This document shows positions 4,475-19,009 of a stretch of 56,595 nucleotides of DNA, piece after piece. The translations under genes and the position numbers were made by a program. Source of the stretch: an uncultured Alphaproteobacteria bacterium (GTDB taxonomy: Bacteria > Pseudomonadota > Alphaproteobacteria > CAAHEQ01 > UBA3637); assembly GCA_944392585.1 (NCBI GenBank), contig CALXXA010000053.1:1-56595 (forward strand), given 5' to 3'. The notes beneath the pieces were generated by a model. It made no database searches, was not told the DNA's origin, and was given only the letters and a program-made list of their open reading frames with translations. How positions within the stretch are numbered: the first letter of the stretch is position 1; each line of letters begins with the position of its first letter.

Positions 4475-6049
4475 ATGTTCTTTTTAAAAAATTTTTTTCA
4501 ATGGTTTTCTTTAAATAAAAAAAATGTGTCCAAGAAAATATTTGTTTTGCTGTTTTTTGCGGGCTGTCTTTCTTCCTTTGGCTTTCAACCTCATTCGTGG
4601 ATATTCATTTTATTTATCACCTTCGGCGTATTATTTTGGATTTTAAATAAATGCTCTGATAAAAAATCTTTTTTCGGAACGGGTTTTTGTTTCGGGTTCG
4701 GATTAGGAGCCTGTTCTTTATCCTGGGTCGCAAACGCTTTAACAATAGATATACAAACATTCGGATGGGCCATTCCTTTTGTCCCTTTAGGTTTTGGTCT
4801 GCTGTTCGGTTTGTTTTACGGAATCTCAACCTTGGCTTGTTATAAAAGCTCTCCCGGGTGGAAAAGATTGTGTGTCTTCGCCGGAGCGTTTACTTTGTCC
4901 GAGTGGGTTCGCAGTTGGATTTTCACCGGCTTTCCCTGGAACGTATTGGGAAACGTTTGGACTGTTTTTCCTCCTGTTTTGCAAACAGCCAGCGTTTTAG
5001 GCGTTTTCGGTCTTTCTTTCATCAGTATTTTTTTGTTTTCCGGGTTATATTTCCTTTTTTCACGTCAATATAAAATACTAACGCTTCTTTGCGTGTTTTT
5101 CCTTATTATCTCAAGCGCAGGGGCTATCCGTTTGTTAACGGCGGAAAAAGCCTCTATTTGGGGACTGACCGTTCGTTTGGTTCAACCTGCTATTCCCCAA
5201 AACTTAAAGTGGAACGCCGACACTGCCGAAGATCATTTAATGGAACATATTCATTTGTCTTTATCTCCGGGAGCTAAAAAAATCACTCACTTAATCTGGT
5301 CTGAAGTCGCTACTCCTTTCCTGTTGGATCAAGACGATTATGCCCGAGCAATGACTATCAGCGCCTTACATCAAGAAGAAACTTTAATCACAGGATCTTT
5401 AAGAAAAGCCTCCTCCTCTCAATTAAGTAACAGCATTTTGGTCATCAACGATGTCGGACAAGTCGTCTCTTATTATGATAAATCTCATCTTGTCCCTTTC
5501 GGAGAATATGTCCCTTTCCAAAAAATTCTCCCTATGCAAAAAATCGTCCCCATAACGTCTGATTTCAAAGCCGGAAAAGGACCTCAAACCATTTCAATTC
5601 CTGGCGCTCCTCCCGCCGGTCTACTCGTTTGTTATGAAATTATTTTCCCAGGAAACGTCATCGACAGAAAATACCGCCCCGATTGGTTGATAAACGTCAC
5701 CAATGATGGATGGTACGGTCTTAGCGCAGGACCCTATCAACACTTGGCCGCCGCGCAACTGCGCGCCGTTGAAGAAGGCTTACCCGTCGTTAGAGCCGCT
5801 GGTTCAGGTATCAGCGCCATCATCAATCCCTACGGACAAATAGAAAAAAGCTTAAAACTCGGAGAAAAAGGCGTCTTAGACGGTTCCGTCCCCCAAAAAT
5901 TACCGCCCACCTTTTATTCGTTTTATCAAAATAGTCTTATTTTATTCCTCGCACTCGTTTCCATTCTCATGGGACAAATCCGAAATAAAAAAAACACGCC
6001 TCTTCATTCTCTTCGCCCCTTCCAAAGTAACAAAAAGTCTATATTCTAA
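4475..6049 (+). CDS. lnt: Apolipoprotein N-acyltransferase
   Basis: Multi-TM N-terminus, TGFPWN; nitrilase triad IWSE, YDKSHLVPFGEY, VCYEIIF; TNDGW. Confidence 0.95.
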   Translation: MFFLKNFFQWFSLNKKNVSKKIFVLLFFAGCLSSFGFQPHSWIFILFITFGVLFWILNKCSDKKSFFGTGFCFGFGLGACSLSWVANALTIDIQTFGWAIPFVPLGFGLLFGLFYGISTLACYKSSPGWKRLCVFAGAFTLSEWVRSWIFTGFPWNVLGNVWTVFPPVLQTASVLGVFGLSFISIFLFSGLYFLFSRQYKILTLLCVFFLIISSAGAIRLLTAEKASIWGLTVRLVQPAIPQNLKWNADTAEDHLMEHIHLSLSPGAKKITHLIWSEVATPFLLDQDDYARAMTISALHQEETLITGSLRKASSSQLSNSILVINDVGQVVSYYDKSHLVPFGEYVPFQKILPMQKIVPITSDFKAGKGPQTISIPGAPPAGLLVCYEIIFPGNVIDRKYRPDWLINVTNDGWYGLSAGPYQHLAAAQLRAVEEGLPVVRAAGSGISAIINPYGQIEKSLKLGEKGVLDGSVPQKLPPTFYSFYQNSLILFLALVSILMGQIRNKKNTPLHSLRPFQSNKKSIF

Positions 6050-6148: not shown

Positions 6149-6637
6149 ATGCAAAAAAAGAAATCTTTAAGAGGTCGCGTGGATGGAGCCCCTAATCCAA
6201 TTGACATCCATGTTGGAAATCGTGTTCGGATGAGACGCACTTTATTAGGAATGAGCCAAGAAAAATTAGGCGAAGAATTAGGTCTCACCTTTCAACAGGT
6301 CCAAAAATACGAAAGGGGAATGAACCGAATCGGCGCAAGTCGCTTGTGGGATATCAGTAAAGTCTTAAATACTCCCATAGAATTCTTTTATGAAGGTATT
6401 AATGAAGATATTGAACAATTAAGTCCTCGGCATATCAATAAAACAGATCATGCGGAAGGTTTGGAAGAATGTATCGCCTCTTTGGACGGAGACCCTATGA
6501 ATAGAAGAGAAACATTGGAATTGGTTCGCGCTTATTATAAAATTCCAGATAGAAATCTGGCCAAAAAAGTATTTGAATTAACAAAATCTCTAGCGACTTC
6601 CTTTAATGCTTCCGAAATAGAAAAAGAAGAAAAATAA
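6149..6637 (+). CDS. XRE-family HTH transcriptional regulator (conserved lnt-adjacent alphaproteobacterial type)
   Basis: PNPIDIHVGNRVRMRR...SQEKLGEELGLTFQQVQKYERGMNRIGASRL. Confidence 0.9.
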   Translation: MQKKKSLRGRVDGAPNPIDIHVGNRVRMRRTLLGMSQEKLGEELGLTFQQVQKYERGMNRIGASRLWDISKVLNTPIEFFYEGINEDIEQLSPRHINKTDHAEGLEECIASLDGDPMNRRETLELVRAYYKIPDRNLAKKVFELTKSLATSFNASEIEKEEK

Positions 6638-6714
6638 CCAAAAGACAATATGCTTTTTTTCATCTTTTTTTCTTTGAACTTTCCGATTATTTTATTAAAC
6701 ATAAGGAATGTATT

Positions 6715-6927
6715 ATGAAAAATCATTTATCCGAAGATTTATTAGAATCATTAAATGTACTGGATTTATTGCAAGAAGAAGGACTTAAAATCGTCCCTGC
6801 GTATCCTACTTCCGCTATGTTAAAAGCCGGAGCTCAAATAACAGGTCTTTCAGAGGAAACCGTCAAAAAACTTTATCTTTCCATGTTAAGTTTTTCCGAT
6901 GAAGAAATTCCTGAACAGAAAAATTAA
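6715..6927 (+). CDS. Small hypothetical protein with phage-like VPxxPTxAMxxAG motif
   Basis: AAGGA RBS; KIVPAYPTSAMLKAG...LYLSML; convergent with the end of the lysis cassette. Confidence 0.6.
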   Translation: MKNHLSEDLLESLNVLDLLQEEGLKIVPAYPTSAMLKAGAQITGLSEETVKKLYLSMLSFSDEEIPEQKN

Positions 6928-7151
6928 AACGTCTTTTTCCTTTCCTCCAACTGACGTTTTAATTTATAAAGCCGATTCATCCAATCGACAAAATAGGGAT
7001 GGTTTTCATCATTAATGAACTGCAATTCGTATTTTACCTGCGGATGCGGTTCTGGAAAAGGAGGGCAGTTATAAAACTGCCCTTTTTGATTACAACTTGT
7101 CAATAAGATGCTTCCACCGATAACAAGGCAAACTCGCAATATCCAGGTCAT
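6924..7151 (-). CDS. Small lipoprotein, putative o-spanin (Rz1-like)
   Basis: Lipobox LLTS-C, Pro-rich CPPFPEPHP; overlaps the upstream ORF in another frame; last gene of the phage-like operon. Confidence 0.6.
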   Translation of the reverse strand: MTWILRVCLVIGGSILLTSCNQKGQFYNCPPFPEPHPQVKYELQFINDENHPYFVDWMNRLYKLKRQLEERKKTF

Positions 7152-7272
7152 TTTGTTGTACTTTTATCTGTTTTTCAAGGTTGTTATTCTTGTATTTCAT
7201 ATTCAAATATGCTTGAATTAACCGCCAAAGGCATATTTTTTGAAGGATTGTCACCCAAAAATTTCTAATCAT
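7090..7272 (-). CDS. Putative i-spanin (Rz-like)
   Basis: Weakly hydrophobic N-terminus plus coiled-coil NNNLEKQIKVQQNDLD; start overlaps the holin-like gene's stop and its 3' end overlaps the lipoprotein gene. Confidence 0.45.
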   Translation of the reverse strand: MIRNFWVTILQKICLWRLIQAYLNMKYKNNNLEKQIKVQQNDLDIASLPCYRWKHLIDKL

Positions 7273-7444
7273 TTTTCCGAGCTTGTCCTACATTTAAAGC
7301 CAAAACATCCAAAACAGATCGAATTTTTTGGAAAAAAGCATCATCTTTAGGAGTCGGTGTCAAAGCGCAAACAGCACTTGCCGCCGTAACAATAGAAGAA
7401 ATAGCTATTAAAATATCTTGTATATGCGTTATAATAAAGTTCAT
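7265..7444 (-). CDS. Putative holin-like phage membrane protein (59 aa, absent from the ORF track)
   Basis: Manual translation MNFIITHIQDILIAISSIVTAASAVCALTPTPKDDAFFQKIRSVLDVLALNVGQARKND; AAGGGG RBS; TPTPKDD...LALNVG motif typical of small phage membrane proteins. Confidence 0.7.
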   Translation of the reverse strand: MNFIITHIQDILIAISSIVTAASAVCALTPTPKDDAFFQKIRSVLDVLALNVGQARKND

Positions 7445-7485
7445 ATTTTTTCCCCTTTCAAAATAAAATAGTTCTTCTTATTTTT

Positions 7486-7743
7486 CTAAAATAAGTTAAA
7501 AAATAATTGAACCACTCCCATACAAATAGCGCTGATTGTCGTCAAAACGACCATTGACAACATATTTTTAATCGGCATCCATTCCGCGCGACTGATAAAC
7601 CTCTTTTCAGTTTCTTTTTGCAAATTCGCCGGTAAAATTGCTATTTGCTGTCTTAATAAATCGATTTGAGTTTTCATTTCCGCAATATCTTGTTGAACAG
7701 CATCCAATCGAGCCATTAATTTCCCCAATTCAATATCTTGCAT
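7486..7743 (-). CDS. Phage membrane protein (coiled coil + C-terminal TM; holin/XhlA-like)
   Basis: ELGKLMARLDAVQQDIAEMK coiled coil and C-terminal hydrophobic helix; coupled to the hydrolase stop. Confidence 0.6.
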   Translation of the reverse strand: MQDIELGKLMARLDAVQQDIAEMKTQIDLLRQQIAILPANLQKETEKRFISRAEWMPIKNMLSMVVLTTISAICMGVVQLFFNLF

Positions 7744-8174
7744 TAAATAACCTCTCTATAAAACAAGTGATTGCCTAATTGAGCGCATGGAATTAAATGC
7801 CTGGCCCATGCCGGGTGAACAGACACCGCGTGATAATGCGTCGCTCCACCTGTTGTGTCTTTCAAAGTTCCGCTGATTGCTCGCATTGCAACATGTCGGC
7901 ACAGATAAAAAAGAGGTTCTTGATCCGTTATATTTTGAATAATTTCAAAGTTAACGTCATTTGGATTCCAGCAAGAAAATTGAAAAGGTTTCAAACAAAT
8001 TTCCTTAACACTGTTTCCCCACCAATATCCTTCTTTTTCTCGTGCTATGGCCCATCTGTTCATAATCACGTTAGCAACAGCTTCAATTCCCGTTAAGCCT
8101 TCTCCTCTTGCTTCTCCATAAAGAGTCCTCGCTAAAACATCTTTATCCTCATATCGTTCTTGTAATGAATTCAT
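7743..8174 (-). CDS. SleB-like cell wall hydrolase (Hydrolase_2), putative endolysin
   Basis: LARTLYGEARGE, AVANVIMNR, QFSCWN, TGGATHYH, GNHLFY. Confidence 0.9.
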   Translation of the reverse strand: MNSLQERYEDKDVLARTLYGEARGEGLTGIEAVANVIMNRWAIAREKEGYWWGNSVKEICLKPFQFSCWNPNDVNFEIIQNITDQEPLFYLCRHVAMRAISGTLKDTTGGATHYHAVSVHPAWARHLIPCAQLGNHLFYREVI

Positions 8175-9607
8175 ATTCCTTCCTCCTTAGAAAACCGCCA
8201 ATCCGGCTTTACTTTTAACGAATAGCTTCTTCTGGGCAGCCGAACCGGAGCATTTAACAAACATCCCGCAACAGCATCCACACCGTCATCATGATCTTTG
8301 CTTAAAGGATGCCAAGCTTCCATTTCTTTATAAAAAGCTGTTGTTTTTATTCTTTCATGAACTTTTAAACAGCCGTTTGCCAATAAAACATCGAAAGCGT
8401 CCAGTATTCTTTGAGCTTTCGCAGAATGTGACGTATAAGGCAAAACAGCACATTGAAAAGCATTTTCTCTGAAAGTTCTCTTTAAAATCTCTGGTAAAAA
8501 CTTCCCGATGCCGTTTGTTTCTACATAGACAGCCGGTAAATGATTTTTCTTTGCAAAATCAAGGACTTGATAACACTGTCTTTTAGCAGATTCATCTGTG
8601 TCCTCAACAATCATATACCTGATGTCGTGTAAATAATAAAACCCCTCGTCATCTTGAAAAACACAAGCAATAACGCTTGCGTCGGCTTTCTGAGATTTCC
8701 CAAACGCCGGATCCCAAAAACAAGACGCTCCTGTCATTCGCTTACCGTCTATTTTTAATTCCGCCATTTGATTACACTCTGTGTAATCTATATCACTCTG
8801 ATACCACTTAAGATTTTTTACATTTAATCTACTTTCCGTTAAGTTTGTCGGTTCCAACAGCATCTGACTGGCAAACTTTGCCGGACCGGAACGTTTTCTG
8901 ATACTCTCTATTTTGCTTTGAGAAAATCTCTCCGGCCACCAGGAATCTCCCGTTTTTGTAAATATCGGCAGCTTTAAAACATTAAACCCAAATAAAAAGC
9001 CTCCCGGATCCACGCTATAAATCGTATCAAAAGCATGCGGCGTCCCAATGTATAACATAAAACCCGCCGGGACCAAAATAAAATCCAATTCCGATAATTT
9101 TAATCTTAAATCCTCGCGTTTTGCCGGTGTTTCACTTGTTTTCGGAACTTCCACATCATCACAAATAATTAAATCCGCTCGACATCCCGTGATATTAGCC
9201 CCAAGCCCTCTTGCCAATACGGAAGGATCTCTTAATTCCAAAGAACGGCGAACAGTAAATCGATCCGCCGCCCATTGATCTTTTTGAGACGGTTTTAAAT
9301 GTTTTGTCAAAGGATGCTTTTCTATAACGCGTTTAATATTGCGAACCATTTTTTTAGCCAGTTCATAATCAGCGGCCATAATTAAAACACGCATATTCGG
9401 ATTTTGCTTAAGCACCCAAGCACAAAACAATCCGACAAGAGTCGATTTACCCGAATTTCGAAAAGCCATTAAAAGTCCTGACTGACGATTTTCCCAGCAC
9501 TCTTTCAAATACCTGCAAATACGCCGATGATGTTTTGGAGTCGTTAAATTTTGAGTTTTATTCCAAATCCAAACAAATTCTGTTAAATCAACATTCATCT
9601 TCAACAT
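8171..9607 (-). CDS. Terminase large subunit (T7-like)
   Basis: Walker A AFRNSGKS, GCRADLIICDDVE Walker B, IGTP coupling motif, nuclease WDPA and HDDGVDA. Confidence 0.92.
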   Translation of the reverse strand: MLKMNVDLTEFVWIWNKTQNLTTPKHHRRICRYLKECWENRQSGLLMAFRNSGKSTLVGLFCAWVLKQNPNMRVLIMAADYELAKKMVRNIKRVIEKHPLTKHLKPSQKDQWAADRFTVRRSLELRDPSVLARGLGANITGCRADLIICDDVEVPKTSETPAKREDLRLKLSELDFILVPAGFMLYIGTPHAFDTIYSVDPGGFLFGFNVLKLPIFTKTGDSWWPERFSQSKIESIRKRSGPAKFASQMLLEPTNLTESRLNVKNLKWYQSDIDYTECNQMAELKIDGKRMTGASCFWDPAFGKSQKADASVIACVFQDDEGFYYLHDIRYMIVEDTDESAKRQCYQVLDFAKKNHLPAVYVETNGIGKFLPEILKRTFRENAFQCAVLPYTSHSAKAQRILDAFDVLLANGCLKVHERIKTTAFYKEMEAWHPLSKDHDDGVDAVAGCLLNAPVRLPRRSYSLKVKPDWRFSKEEGI

Positions 9608-9881
9608 CCTCTAATTCCGCCACAGCATTTCGCGCGGCCTGTATCCAATCACTTTCTTTGTCTTGAGACATATCTTTTCCCAAGTGGAAGCTCATCAGCT
9701 TCAATAAAGTCAACAGGTGGCTTAAAGCACTTTTACAGGCTTGTTGATAAGCCGAAAAAGATTTCGCATCTTCCGGCAGAGGCGTTTGACAAAAATCCAA
9801 ATAATCTTTCCAAACTGTTTTTATTTGAACCGGCAACTTACGTTTGAACTGCTTTTGCAGCTTTAAAAAGTTTTCGGTCAT
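9588..9881 (-). CDS. Hypothetical phage protein, possible terminase small subunit
   Basis: Small helical protein directly upstream of and overlapping terL; positional inference only. Confidence 0.45.
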   Translation of the reverse strand: MTENFLKLQKQFKRKLPVQIKTVWKDYLDFCQTPLPEDAKSFSAYQQACKSALSHLLTLLKLMSFHLGKDMSQDKESDWIQAARNAVAELEDVEDEC

Positions 9882-9891
9882 AAGAACCTCT

Positions 9892-10242
9892 TTACACCAA
9901 CATAGCCGTGCTGATTTGAGCGCTTCCTGATATCAGGCTTTTTAGATTTTTTTTACTTTGAGCACTTAAATTTGCTTTAATTTGTTGAGCGGCGGAAGAA
10001 GCTATCTGCTGATTTTTTTCATTTGTTTCTTTTGTCAGATTTTGAATAACCGCCGCACTGGATCCTGAATCTGGATCGATACCCAAAGCTCCCATTTTAG
10101 CGCGCTGAGAACTAATTTGCTTTTCTAAGAGATTTTGATTATTTTGTTGTTCCGTCCATGCGTCATTTTGAATAGCCCTCACTTGTGATTTATCCGTGCT
10201 TATTCCCAAAGAATTTTGTAAAACAGATTCTAAACTACTCAT
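9892..10242 (-). CDS. Putative internal virion (ejection) protein, T7 gp14-like
   Basis: Gln/Ala/Ser-rich with SSQRAKMGALGIDPDSGS motif; follows the tail tubular genes. Confidence 0.55.
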   Translation of the reverse strand: MSSLESVLQNSLGISTDKSQVRAIQNDAWTEQQNNQNLLEKQISSQRAKMGALGIDPDSGSSAAVIQNLTKETNEKNQQIASSAAQQIKANLSAQSKKNLKSLISGSAQISTAMLV

Positions 10243-12150
10243 TTAATTACTCACTTTCATTTCCGTTGTAACCGAGACCACTTTGCATGGTTTCGGTTTT
10301 TCACTTTTAATCCGCCATAAAGGCGTCATCCCGTCTCTCACCCATCCAAGCGCGTGTAAGCACACGTCTTTTGTTAAAGGTTCCTGATCCTTATCCATTT
10401 GAAAACCTCCGGAAAATTTTGGGATCATAACTTCTTGCAGACCATTTCCCACATCCATCTCCACAGAACTCGTCCTGACGACGCGTAATCGTGCTTGAAT
10501 CAAACGAACAGCCTTTAAAGGTCCCGCTCCCATATCCGAAGAAACAGGCGGTAAAGGAACTATCTCATGAGTGAACGCTAAACCTACTTCAATTTTTTGA
10601 CAGGCAAAAGGTATTGTTAAATAATCATTTTCTATTGTCATATCCGGAATAATAATTCCATCAGCAATAATTTTTACTTTTCTTCCCATCAAAGGAGACA
10701 TTCCCGACCACAACTCATGAGCTCCCTCATGATCTTCCCCCAACAAAGCGCAATCCGTAAAGACCTCGTCATCAAAAGTTTCCAAACATATTTCGTTTTG
10801 CCGCTTTGTTAAAACATAGACATCATCTCCGACAACGCCGACGGCGATAAAAAGACCTTGAGTTTCTTGATGACTCCACGCTAAAACGTTTTCTGTTCGA
10901 TAGTTTGTTAAAGTCGCCATGCTCCCATCTTGCATCACAACATAAACAATCCGTCTGTTTGCGTCATATGCCATATCTATCGGATATCGGATTAAATGAG
11001 ACGATAAAAGAGAAACATTTTTTGCTTGATACGCTTGTTCAATGTCTTGAAATAAAAACTCTCTGACTTCTCGACCGCTTGCCGCAACAAATAATGTCGC
11101 TCCGGACACATCTATGGGAGGAACGCTGGCATATAACGGAGATCCGACCAACGTCTGCCTTTTTAATTGAATATTTGTCGGAGTTAACGGATCTCCGGAA
11201 ACCATCCACTCAGCCCCGGAAGTAAAAATTTGTAAATGTCTTCCCGGAACAACCGCTCGAATAGCATTCACTTGATCCGATAAAATAGAAAATTCTATGG
11301 CTTCATCATCATTTCCTTCTCCCAAGTCAAAATTCATTATGCGAGCTGTCTTTGACAACCATAATCTGTTTGGTAAGTCTCTGGAACCGCCGATGACAAG
11401 CCTGCTCTGGAAAAAAGTCACCGAAGAAGGATAACCGCGGACGGAAGAAAACGCTGCTTCTTTCCAATCCGCCGTTTCAGAAACATCTTTTAAATCTTGT
11501 ATTACCTTCGCTTCGGCAATTTGAGAAGAAATAACATTAAAAATCTCTACTTCTCCTCCGTTTAGCCGAAAGCGAATTCCCACATGTCCTTCTTCAAAAA
11601 AAGGAGCCGAAGTACTCAAAGAAATGTTTCCCGACTGTTGAGAAGGTTTTATAGAAATGGTTGTGTCGCCAAACCGAGCATAAGGCTGCAATATGGCGCC
11701 GTCTTGAGATGTTTCATAAATCCAATTTGTCAAATTCCAAGTTTCACCGACTTGTCTTGTAATCATCACGGGAGGATAATTCGGATGCACAACAAGCAAC
11801 GTATCCGCGCTTTGCGTCCAATTCAAAAAAGGAATATCCTTTTCTTCCCACGGTGTTTGTAAAGTCGCTATCTGTTTTTGCGCACGAAAAATCCGAATCA
11901 AGTTCGGACAAACAACAAATAAATATGTTTGCTCTGTGTTAAAAGTAAAAGGAATTAATCTAACCGCATTTGGAATTTTTTCAATTAATCTTAATCCCGC
12001 TCTTCGCTCCACACCGCCGATAGCGTCGATAAATACATTTTTTAATGTAGCCGCTCCGTTGTCGTAACATGTCAAATCCGTTCTTCCCAACACGTCTTCA
12101 GATACTTCTCCGGAGGTAAAATTCGTTTTATGATGAATAACCTGGCTCAT
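10243..12150 (-). CDS. Tail tubular protein B / nozzle (T7 gp12-like)
   Basis: NFTSGEVS...GRTDL, GGVERRAG, QSADTL, GYPSSVTFFQSRLVIGG; start re-placed at MSQVI by ATGA overlap with the upstream gene. Confidence 0.85.
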   Translation of the reverse strand: MSQVIHHKTNFTSGEVSEDVLGRTDLTCYDNGAATLKNVFIDAIGGVERRAGLRLIEKIPNAVRLIPFTFNTEQTYLFVVCPNLIRIFRAQKQIATLQTPWEEKDIPFLNWTQSADTLLVVHPNYPPVMITRQVGETWNLTNWIYETSQDGAILQPYARFGDTTISIKPSQQSGNISLSTSAPFFEEGHVGIRFRLNGGEVEIFNVISSQIAEAKVIQDLKDVSETADWKEAAFSSVRGYPSSVTFFQSRLVIGGSRDLPNRLWLSKTARIMNFDLGEGNDDEAIEFSILSDQVNAIRAVVPGRHLQIFTSGAEWMVSGDPLTPTNIQLKRQTLVGSPLYASVPPIDVSGATLFVAASGREVREFLFQDIEQAYQAKNVSLLSSHLIRYPIDMAYDANRRIVYVVMQDGSMATLTNYRTENVLAWSHQETQGLFIAVGVVGDDVYVLTKRQNEICLETFDDEVFTDCALLGEDHEGAHELWSGMSPLMGRKVKIIADGIIIPDMTIENDYLTIPFACQKIEVGLAFTHEIVPLPPVSSDMGAGPLKAVRLIQARLRVVRTSSVEMDVGNGLQEVMIPKFSGGFQMDKDQEPLTKDVCLHALGWVRDGMTPLWRIKSEKPKPCKVVSVTTEMKVSN

Positions 12151-12716
12151 CCGCGCACTCCTATCAAAGGGAAATCCCAAATAGCATTCGGAATAGATTG
12201 CTGTCCGTCTATCAATTTTGCATTTTTAAACTCATCTTCTGCCGCCTTTGTTAAATATTCCGCTCTGGAAGTGCTTTCCGTTAAAGGCAAACAAAACTCC
12301 GCCGCCAATCTGGCAATCAAAGCCTGGTCAAAAAACGGTGGAAAGTTTATTTCTTGAGGACGAAAAACATATGTTAAAGTAATTTGCTTTTGATTCGCAT
12401 GCAGCTTATTCTCATGAATACGATAATCTACTCCTAATCCTCGCCGCCCCGAGCCACAAGAAATCGCTCGTAAAAAATCAGCCGGCAACGCAAATGCATA
12501 CTGATAATCGGCAAAAGGTTCCTCTTCCAACAAAGCTAATCCCGTTTGAGCCGTCGCAAAACGCCACGGATGTGCCGATAACATTGCATCTCTCACAGAT
12601 CCGTATAAATAAAAAGCCACATCTGCTTCCGCCGTTCCTTCATGAAAAGATGAAATACCTTGAGCCCCTATTTTAATTAACGCACGCGAACATAAAGCTA
12701 TCGCCGTAGATGCCAT
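12147..12716 (-). CDS. Tail tubular protein A / adaptor (T7 gp11-like)
   Basis: ALCSRALIKIG...RDAMLSAHPWRFA...YAFALPADFLR...FDQALIARLAAE; start re-placed at MASTA after AAGGAGG RBS. Confidence 0.85.
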   Translation of the reverse strand: MASTAIALCSRALIKIGAQGISSFHEGTAEADVAFYLYGSVRDAMLSAHPWRFATAQTGLALLEEEPFADYQYAFALPADFLRAISCGSGRRGLGVDYRIHENKLHANQKQITLTYVFRPQEINFPPFFDQALIARLAAEFCLPLTESTSRAEYLTKAAEDEFKNAKLIDGQQSIPNAIWDFPLIGVRG

Positions 12717-12734
12717 TTTTTCCTCCTTTTTTTT

Positions 12735-12765
12735 AAAAAAAAGGGACCTCTTTAAAAGGTCCCTT
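12735..12765 (-). terminator. Intrinsic terminator directly after the major capsid gene
   Basis: AAGGGACCT/AGGTCCCTT 9-bp stem followed by a U-tract on the minus strand. Confidence 0.8.
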
Positions 12766-12772
12766 CCACTCA

Positions 12773-13615
12773 TTAAGCCGCTTTATCTAAAATTTCAAAC
12801 TTGACGACACCTTTTGTATCAATCAAACACGCTCCTTGACTCATCATGTTGTTGACAAAATGAGCCGCATAATCTCCATGCCATGTAATGTCCGTCTTAA
12901 TGTCCATTCCAACAGCATGCCCCACCGCGTTTTTATGATAAATAAAACATGTATGCGAAGCCGTTTCTCCGGATCCAGACGCCGGTAATCCCGTGTGCAT
13001 AATAAAGTTAATTCCTAACCATTTACGACTTTCACACCCCGCAACAAACGGCGTTTTATTTCCAACATAATCCGCACTTGAAAATTCTTCAATCGACAAT
13101 AATTGATTCCATGCTTGAGGAGAAACTATTGCATATCGTTCTCCATCATCCGGAACATCCTCATTGTTCAATAAAGTAAAAGCTTCTAAAATCAAAGCTT
13201 TTGTTAAAGTTGTTGCACCAGATCCAACGCTTGTTGTTGTTGTCTTTAAAGCGTTAATAATCAATTCGTCCGTTTTACGACCTAAAGCATATGCTCCCGC
13301 TTGAGCAACAACTTTTCGTTCGTCATGCCCGACTTTCAATTCGTCCAAAGAATCAACCCATTCTCCCGCATAATAATCGCTTAAAACACATTCCTTAGGC
13401 GTATGCGACAACTTCATAGTCGGTACTTGCCCATTCCGCGTTTTTGTCGCTGCAACTCCTTTTCCTATTATCTGAAAAGTCGTAGACGCTCCTTGAATAT
13501 TGCTCTTGGAACGAACAGTTGATTTCAATTTAGACCCCATTTGACTATATGCATTCACCACTTCCGCTTGAAAGTGCTTGATAAAAGATTGATCTATTGA
13601 ATTTATTTCTGCCAT
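12773..13615 (-). CDS. Major capsid protein (podovirus type)
   Basis: FIKHFQAEVVNAYSQMGSKL, AYALGRKTDELII, LNNEDVPDDGERY, WLGINFI; AAGGAG RBS; lies between scaffold and tail tubular genes. Confidence 0.88.
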   Translation of the reverse strand: MAEINSIDQSFIKHFQAEVVNAYSQMGSKLKSTVRSKSNIQGASTTFQIIGKGVAATKTRNGQVPTMKLSHTPKECVLSDYYAGEWVDSLDELKVGHDERKVVAQAGAYALGRKTDELIINALKTTTTSVGSGATTLTKALILEAFTLLNNEDVPDDGERYAIVSPQAWNQLLSIEEFSSADYVGNKTPFVAGCESRKWLGINFIMHTGLPASGSGETASHTCFIYHKNAVGHAVGMDIKTDITWHGDYAAHFVNNMMSQGACLIDTKGVVKFEILDKAA

Positions 13616-13663
13616 TTATTTCTCCTTTTTATTTAAACCACGCTCAGTCTTTTTCGACTTCGC

Positions 13664-14356
13664 TTAAGATGATGGATATAACCGCCGAAATCCTTCCGTC
13701 ACCTGACGAACAAAATCAGGATCTTGTTCTTTCCAGTATTTCGGATCCATCATCATTTTTTGTAAACTCGCTTCATCCGTCGGCGTATATTTTTCTTGCC
13801 CATTTGACATAATTTTAGGTTCTTTGCTTTGCATCATGTTATATAAAGTCATGACTCCTTCATATGTTCCCGCCAACGCACTTAAAATCGCCGGCGAGAC
13901 ATTTTGCTTCGCCCATACGGCAAGTTGACGACTCACCTCATTCCATTTTTCTTCTCCGCCAAAATGCCTGATTAAGGCTTCTTTTTGTCTGTCGGACTCA
14001 TAATCCGCCGCTAACTCCTCAATAATAGGTAAAATTTTCGTCGCAGCTAAATCATAAACCGCTTGAACTTGCTTGTTTGTAAAACCTTGTTGAAACAACA
14101 ACTCATTAACTTGCGGATCACTGGATAATAATTTATGATGACATGTTATTTCGTATTGATCCGATGTCTCTGGAACGCCTAACGCTCTGTAAAAAGCCTG
14201 CTTTTGCTCTGTCGGCGTCGTCTCGTCCGGAATTAAAAACATATGTTTTGTTTTTTCGCGTAATTCCCGATACGCATTGTATAAAGCCTCCACGTCTATT
14301 TGACCATCCGATCCTTTAAACGTATCCATATTTGTTTCTTCCATTAAATTTTCCAT
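13664..14356 (-). CDS. Capsid assembly (scaffolding) protein
   Basis: Acidic protein, FYRALGVPE...Y, C-terminal MMDPKYWK...VRQV..GF.RLY; upstream of the capsid gene. Confidence 0.8.
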   Translation of the reverse strand: MENLMEETNMDTFKGSDGQIDVEALYNAYRELREKTKHMFLIPDETTPTEQKQAFYRALGVPETSDQYEITCHHKLLSSDPQVNELLFQQGFTNKQVQAVYDLAATKILPIIEELAADYESDRQKEALIRHFGGEEKWNEVSRQLAVWAKQNVSPAILSALAGTYEGVMTLYNMMQSKEPKIMSNGQEKYTPTDEASLQKMMMDPKYWKEQDPDFVRQVTEGFRRLYPSS

Positions 14357-14371
14357 ATTTTCTCCTTTTCT

Positions 14372-14635
14372 TTAAGACAACAGCGATCCTCGCCCTTGCT
14401 CTGTTAAAGCCTCTATATGAGACACCAATGCTCTTTGACCTTCTAAATAACGCATTTCGGTCTCGCTTGCAGATGAAGCCAATACGCGTTCTTTTGTTAT
14501 TTTCCTTAAATAATTCAAAATCTTAGTACCATCACTCGTCTGAAAACACCGCGCAAAAGAACGAGAAATCGAAAGTCTCTCATCTAAAACGGCTTCCGTC
14601 GTCGTATTATTTAAAAAAGACCAACCCGTTTTCAT
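14372..14635 (-). CDS. Bbp19-like small phage protein
   Basis: FQTSDGTKILNYLRK...EGQRALV..IE pattern between portal and scaffold. Confidence 0.7.
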   Translation of the reverse strand: MKTGWSFLNNTTTEAVLDERLSISRSFARCFQTSDGTKILNYLRKITKERVLASSASETEMRYLEGQRALVSHIEALTEQGRGSLLS

Positions 14636-16095
14636 TTATTTTCTCCCTCTTTTGAAACATTTTCCGCCGCTTTAATCAACTCCATCGGAACGTTCAGCGT
14701 TTCGCCAAGCCATCTCACAAAAGCCGGAACATCCAAACATTCATACGCTTGAGAACCCAATGCTCCCAAACTGGAAAGCCATGTCAAAGCATTATTCGCT
14801 TTTTCCGTGCTCTGTTTGCGCGCCAACGGAGATTGATATCCCACATCAACAATACGCCCGTCTATATATATCTCCGGAATTTCTCCCCGCCGCCTCAATA
14901 TACTGACGGCTCGCTCTATCAACGGATTGAGAAGTTCTATTTGTAAACGGCTGTAAGTGGCTCCCAACACCTCCACCATGTCGCTCGAACGCTCCAACAC
15001 CTCGGTCGCCGTCATTTTCGGATCCGTTATTTGTCCTAATTTATCCACCAACAGCGCATGTCTGATACGTGCTCGCAAGTCATTTAAAACCAATTGAGAA
15101 ACATCAAAACTCCCCGCTGCCTCTAAAGGAGTCAATCCTTTAGATCCAACAGCTTTCGGAATAATCGCTCCAGGAGTTAATCGAATATTCGCCGGATTCA
15201 AAACTCCGTCATCTTCCGCTTGCCAAATGCCGGTTACAGAGATTGTCGCATTTTTTAAAATCAACTCAACCACTTTATTAACGGTTTTAATGTCTGGTAA
15301 AGCCTTCATCACCGGAGAACGTCCATAAATCTCTCCGGGAGCCTTCAACCATCTAAACGTAATAAACGGCGACTCGGTAAAACGTCCTTCTTTTAATACC
15401 GTAAATTCGCCAGCTCCCTCATATGCAAAAATCCGATAATCATACCCTCCCTTCAAAGACGGAATAACAGCTTCTATAATATTCGCCTTTTTTTCCTTTT
15501 CTCTCATGTTCTCTTTAAAAGAAGAAGGAATGTCTTTTTCTCCAAATCGTTTTTCCATCTCCTCCAAGCTCATCTCATGATGCCGGAAAGTTACATCCAA
15601 ACGCCCTGTATTTCCTTCTTCAACATAAAGCTCGCTTAAAGGAACCGCCGTAAATTTAAAAGCAGAAGATCCTCCTATTTTTTCTTCTTCAAACAGCAAA
15701 CAAGCCGTTCCAACCGTCACTAAATCTAAAAAGCACTGATGCAGCTCAACAACAAAAGAAGATCTGTCAAAATGACCTTGAAGAATATTAGATATATTTT
15801 CAAGCCCTTGACTGGCTTGACGAGCAGCTTCTCCATATAAATCAGCACCAACGCATAAATCAAACCACCTGCTCCAAGCCGGCGTCAACTCCGATAACAT
15901 AGAAGCCGCTAATTGATCCACACTGTCAGGTGCCGTTCCATCAAACAACGTATCCGTTTGTAATACATTTTCACTCAATACACCTTCTCGTTGAGGCAGC
16001 GAAAAAGCATAACACTCTTTCCATGTGGATTCTAATTTGTCTCTGCGTGCTTTTGCTTTTAAAAATCTCTGATAAAGTTTTTCCGTTGAAATCAT
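14632..16095 (-). CDS. Portal (head-tail connector) protein, T7-type
   Basis: FDGTAPDSVDQLAASM...LTP..SRWF, GEIYGRSP..ALPDIKT, MTATEV; start re-placed at MISTE after GGGAG RBS. Confidence 0.9.
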   Translation of the reverse strand: MISTEKLYQRFLKAKARRDKLESTWKECYAFSLPQREGVLSENVLQTDTLFDGTAPDSVDQLAASMLSELTPAWSRWFDLCVGADLYGEAARQASQGLENISNILQGHFDRSSFVVELHQCFLDLVTVGTACLLFEEEKIGGSSAFKFTAVPLSELYVEEGNTGRLDVTFRHHEMSLEEMEKRFGEKDIPSSFKENMREKEKKANIIEAVIPSLKGGYDYRIFAYEGAGEFTVLKEGRFTESPFITFRWLKAPGEIYGRSPVMKALPDIKTVNKVVELILKNATISVTGIWQAEDDGVLNPANIRLTPGAIIPKAVGSKGLTPLEAAGSFDVSQLVLNDLRARIRHALLVDKLGQITDPKMTATEVLERSSDMVEVLGATYSRLQIELLNPLIERAVSILRRRGEIPEIYIDGRIVDVGYQSPLARKQSTEKANNALTWLSSLGALGSQAYECLDVPAFVRWLGETLNVPMELIKAAENVSKEGENK

Positions 16096-16096
16096 T

Positions 16097-16291
16097 TTAC
16101 TCTCCCAATAAAGTTTTACGCACAGGCGCGTCATCTTTTAAATTCAACAAACCTCTCATGGAAGTTTGCACTGTTTCCATTCCCGCTTGTCGAGCTAGAT
16201 AACTATTGTCGCGCTCACTTGTTTTTGCTTCCGAAACAACAACATTCGGAACTTTAGTGTCTATTCCTATTATTTCTTCAACTTTCTTCAT
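16097..16291 (-). CDS. Small phage protein upstream of the portal
   Basis: Ends TSMRGLL...RKTLLGE, a C-terminal pattern typical of the small pre-portal gene of podoviruses; first gene of the operon. Confidence 0.65.
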   Translation of the reverse strand: MKKVEEIIGIDTKVPNVVVSEAKTSERDNSYLARQAGMETVQTSMRGLLNLKDDAPVRKTLLGE

Positions 16292-16347
16292 TATTTTATC
16301 CTTTATTCAAAAGCTCTTATCCCGACAGACAAAACCAGAAGAGGTTT

Positions 16348-16379
16348 AACAAAAAACCTCCTGAAAAATCAGGAGGTTT
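16348..16379 (-). terminator. Leader terminator upstream of the structural operon
   Basis: Perfect 11-bp stem AAACCTCCTGA/TCAGGAGGTTT, 4-nt loop, U-tract on the minus strand. Confidence 0.8.
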
Positions 16380-16414
16380 AATTTGAATACACTTCTATCG
16401 GGTTACTAAAGACT

Positions 16415-16458
16415 CTTATACCACACTTTTATTCCTATGTCAAGGATTTTTTTCCTAT
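16415..16458 (-). promoter_or_regulatory. Sigma70-type promoter of the structural operon with overlapping operator-like sites
   Basis: Minus strand TTGACA(16443-16438)-N17-TATAAG(16420-16415) with extended -10 TG; GGAT-N4-TTCC at 16444-16455 and half-site TTCCTAT at 16432-16438. Confidence 0.75.
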
Positions 16459-16836
16459 TTTTAACAAATAGCAATATAATTGATAAGGCGTCCAAATTCG
16501 CCTATCGGTAATACCGACAAATCTTTTAGCCGTTTCGACACAAGTATAAGGCATAATTTTCATTTGATGTTTTGACGGCGGAGAAATGGTTGTTTCAACG
16601 ACGCGATAGCCATGAGCGAACAAAAAGTTTTTTAAATCGCCGTCTGTCACCAGAATTAAGTCGGTATAATGAGCCAAAGGATCGATTAAAACCCATCCGT
16701 TTTGAGAGTCTCCCAAAGCGACGACACAATGATAGAATCCTTTTTTTAAAAAGCGCATCCACCAAAAAGTCGGAGATCCTCCGAATCCGATTAAAGCCTT
16801 TGTTTGTCTAAAACCTCTGCATTTCGGGCCAATCAT
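16435..16836 (-). CDS. Hypothetical protein, possible permuted papain-like (NlpC/P60) cysteine hydrolase
   Basis: GFYHCVVAL (His) ... PYTCVETAKRFVG (Cys) ... WTPYQLY. Confidence 0.55.
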   Translation of the reverse strand: MIGPKCRGFRQTKALIGFGGSPTFWWMRFLKKGFYHCVVALGDSQNGWVLIDPLAHYTDLILVTDGDLKNFLFAHGYRVVETTISPPSKHQMKIMPYTCVETAKRFVGITDRRIWTPYQLYCYLLKIGKKSLT

Positions 16837-16845
16837 TTCAGCCCC

Positions 16846-17256
16846 CTAATGGTAATTACATTGTAAATACATTTCAGAGCTAAAATCATCCTCATCCGGC
16901 TGCACTATCCCTTTGCTTATCAATATCGGTTCCATCACAAATAAAGCATCTCTCCATAAACGACATTCATCAAAACTCGCGCCAAAAGAAATATGCGGCG
17001 GCATCTGCTCTAAACCATATTTTGATAAGACTCTGACATGATATTGCTTCAAAATCCCTTTCAATACCAATCTTTTCAAAACTATTAATATATCACTCGC
17101 TTCACAAGGCCTCGCCACACTCCTCCTCGCAGAAGAAAATCTTCCTCGATTTCCTTTATGCGTCTCACACCAACAACACCATAACCATGCCTCTTCCGCC
17201 GTATAAAACGGCTCACCTTGCCTGTAATCAGCTCTTAAGCCGGATTTTCTGATCAT
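16846..17256 (-). CDS. Hypothetical protein, candidate activator/antiterminator of the cluster
   Basis: Basic helical protein (PF.TAEEAW.W, RPCEASDI, RLWRDAL..MEP.L.SKGIV); divergent from the repressor; start re-placed at MIRKS after AAGGGAG RBS. Confidence 0.55.
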   Translation of the reverse strand: MIRKSGLRADYRQGEPFYTAEEAWLWCCWCETHKGNRGRFSSARRSVARPCEASDILIVLKRLVLKGILKQYHVRVLSKYGLEQMPPHISFGASFDECRLWRDALFVMEPILISKGIVQPDEDDFSSEMYLQCNYH

Positions 17257-17296
17257 TTTCTTTTCTCCCTTCATAGAACAAATCATGAACATTATA

Positions 17297-17397
17297 TGTA
17301 TAAGAAATTTTTTTCTCATTGTCAATAAAAAAATAGGTTTTTTTTCCTATTTACAAACAAAAATTCCTATGCTATATTGTTTTCAGGAATTTATTCA
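17297..17397. promoter_or_regulatory. Back-to-back promoters with repeated operator-like palindromes
   Basis: Minus TTGACA(17325-17320)-N17-TATACA; plus TTTACA(17350-17355)-N17-TATATT; ATAGG-N8-CCTAT at 17333-17350, GGAA-N4-TTCA at 17386-17397, TTCCTAT at 17364-17370. Confidence 0.65.
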
Positions 17398-17413
17398 AAA
17401 AAGGAAAAAAAAT

Positions 17414-18049
17414 ATGCATCTCTCTTATGTGGAAATTTGGAAAGGAATTGATCAACTCGCCTATACCAAAAAAATGTCTTTATCAGCTATGGCTCAAAAA
17501 GCCGGTTTGGATCCAACCGCTTTCAACAAAAGCAAACGCGTCGGACCTGACGGCAGAAAAAGATGGCTTTCAATGGAAAGTCTCAATAAAGTTCTCAACG
17601 CGACAAACACAACTCTTGATGAGTTCATCCGACTCACCGGCCAAAATATAGAACCTTCACGACAAACCATTCCTCTTTTAGGCTTCGCTCAAGCCGGATG
17701 CGACGGCTTCTTTGATGACGCCGGCTTTCCCATAGGCAGCGCCGGATGGGATGCTATTTCTTGTCCGATGAGCTTGGATAAAACCGCTTACGCTTTAGAA
17801 GTGTGTGGATCCAGCATGGAACCTGTCTATCGGGAAGGAGATCGTTTAATCGTCAGCCCGGATTCCGAAATCAGAAAAGGCGATCGAATTGTCTTGAAAA
17901 CAAAAAACGGTGAAGTCATGGTTAAAGAACTCAAAAGACAAACCGCCTCCTTCGTCGAATTAAAATCCTTAAACCCAGCTCATCCGGATCGTTCTTTCCC
18001 TATTCAAGAAATATCTTGGATGGCGCGCGTTTTATGGGTCAGTCAATAA
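17414..18049 (+). CDS. HTH + S24 peptidase (CI/LexA-like) repressor, conserved alphaproteobacterial type
   Basis: IWKGIDQLA...SLSAMAQKAGLDPTAFNKSKR..DGRKRW; Ala-Gly site AQAG; catalytic GSSMEP Ser and VMVK Lys; start re-placed after AAGGA RBS. Confidence 0.88.
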   Translation: MHLSYVEIWKGIDQLAYTKKMSLSAMAQKAGLDPTAFNKSKRVGPDGRKRWLSMESLNKVLNATNTTLDEFIRLTGQNIEPSRQTIPLLGFAQAGCDGFFDDAGFPIGSAGWDAISCPMSLDKTAYALEVCGSSMEPVYREGDRLIVSPDSEIRKGDRIVLKTKNGEVMVKELKRQTASFVELKSLNPAHPDRSFPIQEISWMARVLWVSQ

Positions 18050-18298
18050 AATTTCTTTTACAAAAAACACTTTATTCACAATAAACTATGAATAATATTT
18101 GATGTCTTCTCTTTGTTTTTCATAATATAAAATGAATTAATATATATTATTTTATTATTTTTACTTGTTAAGTTGTATTTTTTCTTTCCCTATGAGGTGC
18201 GCCAATTTAAAATTATTTCCCACTTTAATATGAAATTTAAAACAAACCTTGCGCTTTTTTAAAAATCTTCATATACTGATTAAAAAAAGGACTTTTTT

Positions 18299-19009
18299 AT
18301 GAGCTGTCGTGAAATTGTATGGGATACGGAAACAACAGGATTCGATCCTTTCTCCGGCGATAAGATTGTTGAAATCGGCGCCGTGGAGTTGATTAATCAC
18401 TTAAAAACAGGAAAAACTTTCCACAAATATATCAATCCTTTGCGCTCTATGAGCGAGGAAGTGATTCGTGTTCATGGATTAACAGAAGAATTTTTGTCTG
18501 ACAAGCCTATCTTTGAGGAAATTTGCAACGATTTTTTGGATTTTATCGGAACAGATTCTCATCTTGTCGCTCATAACGCCTCTTTTGATATGAAATTTAT
18601 TAATTATGAACTCCAACAAGTCGGCAAAAATCCTATTCCAGACGACCGCGTCATTGATACTCTTTTAATCGCAAAAAAGCTCTTTCCCGGAAAAAAAGTC
18701 AATCTAGACGAACTGTGTCGGCGTTTTCATATAGATAATTCCGCCAGAACCGTTCACGGCGCTCTGTTGGATGCAGAACTCTTGGCTGACGTTTATTTGG
18801 AACTCCTCGGAGGGAAAGAACCTTCCTTCCTTCTATCTCAAGAAGATTATTCTCCCTTTGATTTAACCGTCTCCTCGCAAAACAAAAAACGAGAACCTCG
18901 ACTTTTCTCCATCCCGGAAAAAGACTTGCAAAATCACTTGTCTTTTATTCATTCCATGAAAAATTCTCTCTGGCTGCAAAATGAAAAAAATGAAAAATCT
19001 CACAATTAA
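18299..19009 (+). CDS. dnaQ: DNA polymerase III epsilon subunit
   Basis: REIVWDTETTG, VAHNASFD, HGALLDAELLA.VYLEL.GG (DEDDh). Confidence 0.93.
   Translation: MSCREIVWDTETTGFDPFSGDKIVEIGAVELINHLKTGKTFHKYINPLRSMSEEVIRVHGLTEEFLSDKPIFEEICNDFLDFIGTDSHLVAHNASFDMKFINYELQQVGKNPIPDDRVIDTLLIAKKLFPGKKVNLDELCRRFHIDNSARTVHGALLDAELLADVYLELLGGKEPSFLLSQEDYSPFDLTVSSQNKKREPRLFSIPEKDLQNHLSFIHSMKNSLWLQNEKNEKSHN

Follow-up and report, generated by a model that had tools for sequence, protein, structure and literature searches.

We describe a short control element in the genome of an uncultured alphaproteobacterium, read on the minus strand at positions 16292–16458 of a 56,595-nt stretch of DNA (hereafter the window) and placed directly ahead of an operon of T7-like particle genes. 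The interval is probably a control cassette for these late genes, composed of an operator-like site, a promoter, a two-box leader of about 60 nt and an intrinsic terminator, with the product of the nearby gene P0002 serving as the antiterminator. The cassette would work in the manner of lambda Q/pR′–tR′ and of Pseudomonas AlpR–AlpA/PalpB–tB. DNA damage would remove LexA from a GTTC-N7-GTTC box on the early promoter and would also let a divergently encoded repressor with helix–turn–helix (HTH) and S24 domains cleave itself; the early operon would then make P0002, which would join the RNA polymerase (RNAP) started at the late promoter and cause it to ignore the hairpin, and the modified polymerase would enter the T7-like particle operon as well as an unlinked tail-fibre gene on another contig (C33). 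In the absence of P0002, transcription from the late promoter would end after about 60 nt. If this is true, promoter-loaded antitermination extends to Alphaproteobacteria and to T7-like elements, and P0002, if it is the antiterminator, founds a large family without sequence likeness to Q or AlpA or, as far as Pfam matches show, to GafZ. A direct test would be simple, since it calls for no more than a single promoter, a single hairpin and a single protein of 136 aa.

Promoter, leader and terminator ahead of the late genes

The late promoter (16415–16443, minus strand) consists of a −35 element TTGACA (16443–16438), a 17-nt spacer (16437–16421) and a −10 element TATAAG (16420–16415). The spacer ends in TGg, T16423 and G16422 supplying the TGn of an extended −10 element (16423–16421), and direct reading of the minus strand thereby bears out the TGn-extended TTGACA-N17-TATAAG promoter of the original prediction. 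Transcription would start near 16407/16408, within the predicted start region that also holds the first leader box (16403–16408), TAGTAA here and CAGTTA or GTTA in relatives; the second box, AAGTGTAT (16387–16394), lies at a fixed distance from the −10 element. The terminator occupies 16348–16379 and comprises an 11-bp stem (16379–16354) with five G–C pairs and a TTTT loop, followed by six T residues (16353–16348). This is a G+C-rich stem-loop directly before a T-run, the defining arrangement of an intrinsic (Rho-independent) terminator, and the range that had been proposed for an 11-bp hairpin with its U-tract proves to be that of stem plus T-run. The hairpin begins at about +29 from the predicted start, and a terminated RNA would be about 58–61 nt long. 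Fifty-six nucleotides separate the T-run from the ATG of the first late gene (16291), which is preceded by an AAGGA ribosome-binding site at 16303–16299.

A promoter match alone proves nothing, because promoter-like matches are as frequent in shuffled sequence: a consensus scanner found 11 in the region against 11.5 expected. The scanner requires a T at the last −10 position, so that the late promoter, whose −10 ends in G, is not listed by it at all. Terminator-like sites are enriched (12 in region 14000–19000, compared with 4.3 ± 2.0 in shuffles). The above-chance status of promoter and leader follows from their conservation in relatives. The genome from which the window derives (1.16 Mb in 55 contigs) has three relatives of the same genus that match a 1404-nt region at 72–73% identity. 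From the operator-like site to about +30 the sequence is almost invariant in these genomes while the flanking coding DNA varies, and the late promoter is nearly invariant in all four members of the genus. The hairpin stems read AAACCTCCTGA/TCAGGAGGTTT in the window, CCCTCTGAT/ATCAGGGGG in two of the relatives and CCCTCGGTA/TACCGAGGG in the third. Across the genus four or more base pairs have changed on both sides and none is broken, a compensatory pattern. The hairpin is also found by RNAalifold from a MAFFT alignment, with two double changes; the cells marked as broken reflect a one-column register shift in the fourth sequence.

The same design recurs in the family to which the genus belongs. 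The 19-mer TAGGAAnAnAnTCCTTGAC (at most one mismatch), a motif that takes in the operator-like site and the −35 element, is present in 48 of 80 family genomes at one to four copies each, giving about 96 matches as against 3 with a reversed control. Among 37 non-redundant family units the 17-nt spacer and the TGn before the −10 element are each found in 36, a GTT[AG] 6–8 nt past the −10 element in 26, and a GTNTAT-like word 21–22 nt past it in 25; the spacer sequence itself is unconserved between genera, as is the leader past its first ~30 nt. The reading frame of P0003, the gene upstream, ends inside the operator in the window, and in other genera the frame also stops within these words of DNA; what is conserved in the cassette is thus DNA and not protein. 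That promoter match and hairpin are accidents of AT-rich intergenic DNA, as the shuffle-level frequency of promoter-like matches might suggest, is scarcely credible: conservation far above that of the flanking coding DNA, the 96-to-3 ratio of matches and the fixed spacing refute it.

Terminators were surveyed in one unit per genome from 30 family loci, with random windows of the same loci as controls. A terminator-like hairpin lies within 170 nt in 28/30 units but in only 21/150 control windows, and the two misses (L174 and L185) show a hairpin and T-run by eye, the rule having failed on a long loop or on an A-tract that pairs with the T-run. Three loci (L064, L170 and L176) carry two tandem terminators. 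This survey and the compensatory changes answer the question, raised by the original prediction, of whether the leader hairpin is kept in orthologous clusters: within the family, it is. The promoter precedes the terminator in 28/30 units from about ten genera, and comparison of the sequences shows the order promoter, terminator, gene to be a conserved design. In the orthologous units L179, L167, L029 and L176 the T-run lies so near the start codon (about 12–22 nt) that a promoter could not be accommodated after the terminator; with no place for another promoter, late transcripts have to pass the terminator. In the window, too, the scanner lists no promoter-like site in the minus-strand interval from the T-run to 16291, where a separate promoter would have counted against the original prediction. 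We therefore regard it as very probable, from this comparative anatomy, that the late genes need terminator read-through.

The hairpin could nevertheless be a leaky terminator that ends the P0002–P0003 operon and merely damps the late promoter, with no dedicated antiterminator and with regulation left to the repressor (and LexA). It stands 55 nt past the P0003 stop codon, a normal distance for an operon terminator; a same-strand host gene also ends just upstream of the related unit on contig C33, and the operator-like sites sit on promoters. A hairpin that ends an upstream operon should, however, precede the next promoter, whereas the promoter comes first in 28/30 units, and an 11-bp stem with six T residues, or a tandem pair of terminators, would leave little read-through for an operon of 9 kb. 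On balance we hold this explanation to be unlikely.

With its strong promoter, its terminator and the conserved 5′ sequence between them, the cassette is also a complete small transcription unit, and lambda pR′, too, yields a short RNA; the cassette might encode a small RNA of about 60 nt with a function of its own, its placement ahead of late genes being secondary. Yet every unit examined stands directly upstream of a phage-type gene in the same direction that has no other promoter, the sequence past the first ~30 nt is unconserved between genera, and Rfam 15 returned nothing at gathering score (27 matches at E ≤ 10, the best at 22.9 bits compared with a required 54.3). A small RNA as the principal product is thus very improbable, and such an RNA would in any case be compatible with antitermination at the same unit.

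The leader as a whole folds well: its minimum free energy is −35.7 kcal/mol (z −4.0; RNAfold) and none of 200 shuffles folds as well. The fold uses an outer stem around the terminator (16321–16402, CCCGAUAGA/UCUGUCGGG) that pairs CCCGA (16402–16398) with TCGGG (16325–16321); a comparable stem, CCCGGC/GCCGGG, is predicted for one relative (G001, L163) and none for another (G003, L165). A second AAACCTC copy (16341–16347) is able to pair with the 3′ arm of the terminator in an alternative nine-pair hairpin (16362–16339). The further leader structure proposed originally is thus present in both its parts and the outer pair folds, but the AAACCTC copy falls in an alignment gap in all three same-genus relatives and is not conserved. 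As it is transcribed only after the T-run, it would be unable to prevent termination, and attenuation by means of this copy was rejected on both counts. Attenuation by another alternative RNA structure was likewise rejected, no upstream segment being complementary to the 5′ arm of the terminator, as was a leader peptide: the leader has no ATG, and a GTG at 16392–16390 opens four codons only. In many units a small first hairpin carries box 2 in its loop; it is structurally unconserved and in the window itself has no more than 3 bp.

P0002 and its proposed part in passage of the terminator

P0002 (16846–17256, minus strand) is a candidate antiterminator of the Q21/AlpA type. The gene ends 403 nt upstream of the late −35 element with only P0003 in between, and the order P0002, P0003, late promoter is kept in 15/15 other family loci. 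P0002 is found in 53/80 family genomes and the repressor in 53/80, in the same genera with the exception of one fragment; all 48 motif-bearing genomes carry P0002, and the 27 genomes without P0002 carry no motif. Because the genomes are kin and the genes adjacent, this co-occurrence is to be read as the mark of one system and not as an independent association. In the IMG/VR loci with a P0002 relative, whose GC content ranges from 0.33 to 0.73, P0003 adjoins in 50/50 and a T7-type portal gene follows in 49/50, and the repressor was seen upstream of P0002 in 34/50. Relatives of P0002 also appear in records named as Paramagnetospirillum, Rhodovastum and Muricoccus. Several of 16 high-GC relatives that were inspected show, by eye, TTGAC, a −10 element, a CCAGAAsTGyrTC-like leader word and a hairpin with T-run.

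Sequence comparison does not place P0002 in a described family. It matches no Pfam family and no PHROG family; the aligned members, 16 or 75 in number, share no Pfam family and give scattered single-member matches, none of them to a Q family and none pointing to GafA, GafY or GafZ; profiles of 16 and of 75 sequences find no match in the PDB at E ≤ 10, and tblastn finds none in cultured phage records. In the protein Atlas P0002 falls in unnamed clusters at 0.97, and a cluster named 'putative Q protein' appears only at 0.80, which is a lead only. The family is nonetheless large, with 536 clusters at 50% identity. A zinc site was considered and rejected: the family alignment keeps C28, C30 and C98, but in the wider alignment only C51 is invariant.

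The fold evidence for P0002 is weak, a point in favour of a leaky terminator without a dedicated antiterminator. In the viral loci a strict rule finds a terminator-like site in only 17/48, against 22/144 controls. We nevertheless lean, with modest confidence, towards P0002 as the dedicated antiterminator, for which it is the best candidate.

Read-through could instead be governed by something other than P0002, namely by P0003, by a host factor of the GafA/GafZ or NusG type, or by the leader RNA itself in a put-like or nut-like manner. Both leader boxes keep their sequence and their place in the leader, the loop position of box 2 in the small first hairpin of many units is reminiscent of boxA/boxB or put elements, gene transfer agent (GTA) leaders of Hyphomicrobiales without P0002 contain a leader word of a similar kind, and P0003 accompanies P0002 in every one of the viral loci. 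On the other hand, the best structural matches of P0003 are cysteine hydrolases and not nucleic-acid binders, and an RNA element would sit poorly with the lack of an Rfam family at threshold and of a conserved first-hairpin structure. We consider such a regulator improbable.

The closest parallels are the Q cassettes of lambda, 21 and 82, phage 21 Q above all, in which the Q gene, pR′, a sigma-dependent pause element, tR′ and the late genes follow one another. With these the present cassette shares a candidate factor gene immediately upstream of the target unit and a promoter followed by an intrinsic terminator ahead of the late genes. It differs in the P0003 gene that intervenes between regulator and promoter, and in P0002 itself, which has no sequence similarity to Q and does not belong to the Pfam family Phage_antitermQ. 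The conserved site beside the −35 element here seems to be the repressor's and not the antiterminator's, and the cargo is a T7-like cluster without replication genes, with the cassette found at unlinked loci too. Inspection of the 37 units found no canonical sigma-dependent pause element (a −10-like hexamer with A at position 2 and T at position 6); box 1, (C/T)AGTTA, and box 2, TAT(C/T)(C/T)N, both lack a T at position 6, though a non-canonical pause signal may be present.

A predicted self-cleaving HTH and S24 repressor encoded beside a candidate antiterminator gene is the arrangement of AlpR in Pseudomonas aeruginosa. In contrast to the AlpR–AlpA–PalpB/tB system, an AlpA element between −35 and −10 is not evident here beyond the genus-specific ATAGGAA half-site in the spacer, and neither is the −10-like CACGAT that AlpA requires at −1 to +5: the (C/T)AGTTA at about −1 to +5 has an A at +1 and no T at +5. 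Moreover, the cargo consists of particle genes and not only of lysis functions, and a putative LexA-type box would add a second input. Because the system belongs by sequence to neither the Q nor the AlpA family, and because inspection revealed no canonical pause element, we do not file it in either, yet we hold that it would work like them.

Conserved leader RNA elements between the promoter and the first terminator are characteristic of lambda N/nut and HK022 put. Here, too, conserved leader elements precede the terminator and many units have a small hairpin carrying a conserved loop; unlike nut and put, the elements stand at a fixed distance from the −10 element and the hairpin structure is unconserved, and the comparison turned up neither an N-like protein nor an Rfam match.

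The original prediction also stated that the Caulobacter GafYZ system combines activation with antitermination, and this agrees with the published account, in which GafY together with IHF activates the GTA and GafZ antiterminates (PMC11150451). According to that paper, the Caulobacter GTA promoter has weak −35 and −10 elements with the GafZ site, a palindrome, between them, the terminator consists of three 150-bp repeats after the first gene, and the authors see no similarity of GafZ models to Q or AlpA (PMC11150451). GafY/GafZ and Rhodobacter GafA resemble the present system in their two tiers, a repressor and then an activator or antiterminator, and GafYZ resembles it further in that a particle cluster needs processive terminator read-through and that accessory genes elsewhere share the control (PMC11150451). 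The near-consensus promoter and simple leader hairpin differ from the GafYZ arrangement as described there, and the structural cluster is T7-type and not of the Rhodobacter capsulatus GTA (RcGTA) type. The present cassette is anatomically closer to Q and AlpA than to GafYZ.

The repressor, its likely operator and the Hyphomicrobiales

The repressor gene (17414–18049, plus strand) is divergent to P0002 and encodes an HTH-S24 protein of the cI/LexA type (Peptidase_S24, E 1.2e-22; HTH_26, E 0.0044; phrog_4 repressor, E 1.9e-28). A longer open reading frame (ORF) spans 17285–18049, and the true start is probably its M44, at 17414, because the early promoter lies inside the longer frame. Within the window's family the repressor is confined to genera with the T7-like cluster.

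At the late promoter an operator-like site TAGG-N8-CCT (16443–16457, minus strand) abuts the −35 element and overlaps its first T, at about −36 to −50. A second half-site, ATAGGAA (16432–16438), reaches into the late spacer 20 nt from the first; it is genus-specific, being present in all four genomes of the genus and absent in other genera. The window holds 17 copies of ATAGGAA where 9.4 would be expected; four of them make up two pairs with a spacing of 20 nt, the first at the late promoter and the other in the divergent region. The latter (17334–17370, minus strand) combines an operator TAGG-N8-CCTA (17349–17334) with a half-site ATAGGAA (17370–17364). Its palindrome extends to AATAGG-N8-CCTATT (17351–17332), and AAATAGG-N8-CCTATTT is conserved in the three same-genus relatives; the site abuts the −35 element of, and enters, the repressor's plus-strand promoter (17350–17378, TTTACA-17-TATATT with TG).

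Orthologues of the repressor (52–60% identity, one clear best match each) were found in 5/5 distant alphaproteobacterial genomes searched, from Hyphomicrobiales and Acetobacteraceae, and in four of them the 110 nt or so ahead of the orthologue contain a TAGG-N8-CCT site, in the fifth a three-mismatch variant. None of the five has P0002 at E ≤ 0.1, and no T7-like module adjoins the orthologues. As the site stands upstream of the repressor in genomes where P0002 was not found, TAGG-N8-CCT is most simply read as the repressor's own operator. At about −36 to −50 at both promoters, its position matches the geometry of lambda OR2 relative to PRM, and repression of the late promoter by occlusion is possible, not assured. 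Of the double lock set out in the original prediction, the need for terminator read-through is thus strongly supported by comparative anatomy and P0002 is the best candidate for the factor, while repressor occlusion at the late promoter is no more than a possibility.

A clear repressing position is seen in two genera (L006 and L009), in which a full TAGG-N8-CCTA site lies between the −35 and −10 elements of the P0002 promoter and takes the place of a GTTC-N7-GTTC box. In the window the early promoter (17276–17325, minus strand) reads TTGACA-N17-TATACA (17325–17297) followed by GTTC-N7-GTTC (17290–17276), and such a box follows the early −10 element in 11/16 loci, the window included. GTTCN7GTTC is given as the Caulobacter SOS box in the literature (PMC9578287). 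A scan of the window's own genome with a poorly chosen SOS-box pattern gave 23 matches and 15 control matches and is uninformative.

The motif reaches beyond the family. A scan of species genomes returned at least 120 loci, and most of the matches listed, one per locus, belong to Hyphomicrobiales such as Mesorhizobium, Hoeflea, Rhizobium, Brucella and Ancylobacter; in these listed loci N17, TAGGnT and a leader word resembling GTCGGAAAAGTG come after the motif. The large terminase gene starts about 600 nt downstream of the motif in 3/3 Hyphomicrobiales loci checked. In Brucella pituitosa (L062/L195, G096:C1:783700-801700) the motif stands at the head of a full RcGTA-type cluster comprising portal, S78 protease, HK97 capsid, GTA-gp10, DUF2460, BR0599 and GTA_TIM, the last of which (PF13547) is found in 0/80 genomes of the window's family, with Caulobacter as a positive control. 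One predicted operator and −35 design accordingly serves two unrelated particle clusters. A terminator-like site occurs in 27/82 of the listed Hyphomicrobiales leaders against 18/165 controls, an enrichment that is far from universal. The Hyphomicrobiales spacers hold a conserved CGTGACG-like palindromic core reminiscent of the Caulobacter GafZ site; a strict palindrome test of the listed spacers (36/82, compared with 16/82 when shuffled) is suggestive only.

It is tempting, though speculative, to see the cassette as one face of an alphaproteobacteria-wide switch in which an HTH-S24 repressor with TAGG-N8-CCTA acts on two unrelated particle clusters, the one RcGTA-type, in Hyphomicrobiales, and the other T7-like, replication-less and podovirus-GTA-like, known at GC contents from 0.33 to 0.73 and, in the gut family described here, with tail-fibre and lysis genes dispersed behind copies of the cassette, the T7-like version adding an orphan Q21/AlpA-like antiterminator family that is always paired with a permuted papain-like hydrolase. 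That RcGTA-type promoters of Hyphomicrobiales share the operator suggests a DNA-damage-linked regulator of gene transfer agents, which can be put to the test. Among the papers considered, to the extent of their titles and abstracts, none reports such a repressor or a podovirus-type agent in Alphaproteobacteria.

The late operon, a second cassette and neighbouring genes

The late operon (7743–16134, minus strand, 9 kb) consists of T7/BPP-1-type particle genes as assigned with Pfam and PHROGs: a T7-type portal (Head-tail_con, E 6e-129), a Bbp19-like protein, a scaffold, the capsid (E 1e-71), two tail proteins, a small internal virion protein, a 97-aa ORF, the large terminase and an endolysin. 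The same searches found no replication or integration genes in the operon, and the T7-like cluster as a whole (7743–18049) has no large internal-core genes. Internal terminators (11 terminator-like sites compared with 8.4 expected) and minus-strand promoters are not in excess. The cluster looks like a domesticated particle system, a candidate podovirus-type GTA, and not like a prophage.

The window's genome holds a second cassette on contig C33 (L036 3-1082, minus strand), in which a promoter and a leader that includes a related box are followed by a hairpin and nine T residues. It precedes a tail-fibre gene (tail protein, phrog_1640, E 1e-25) that adjoins host-looking ORFs, acyl-ACP-thioesterase-like and transporter-like, as named from their translations only. 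Each of the three same-genus relatives has a single copy of the 19-mer variant found there, and the same gene start was seen in one of them (L162). Units of other genera stand ahead of a lysozyme-like gene, of genes for a peptidoglycan-binding protein and an ankyrin-repeat protein, and of additional tail genes. The cassette marks what, on these predictions, is a small regulon that comprises the main cluster and unlinked tail-fibre and lysozyme-like genes, and it is usable for finding scattered parts of the particle system in fragmentary genomes.

The first late gene, P0004 (16097–16291, minus strand), encodes 64 aa ending in LLGE; no family was found for it, and its homologues (51–81% identity) precede the portal gene in 8/15 loci, a position kept in several genera. 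In high-GC relatives it is enlarged by proline-rich inserts. P0003 (16435–16836, minus strand, 133 aa), whose last codons overlap the operator and the −35 element, matches no Pfam or PHROG family; the cysteine hydrolases that are its best structural matches are TseH and YiiX, and it is predicted to be a circularly permuted papain-like hydrolase of the YiiX/TseH type in which His36 and Cys99 are invariant. In this early operon and in all 50 viral loci its gene directly follows that of the candidate antiterminator.

Past the endolysin end of the cluster, about 1.1 kb (6638–7742) contains no ORF of 90 aa or more, and an XRE-type HTH gene follows at 6149–6637 (plus strand). The cluster is near an lnt gene both in the window (4475–6049, plus strand) and in a genome of another genus (G005, L196 8501–9985), in which lnt adjoins the repressor gene; this proximity in two genera hints at a conserved chromosomal position.
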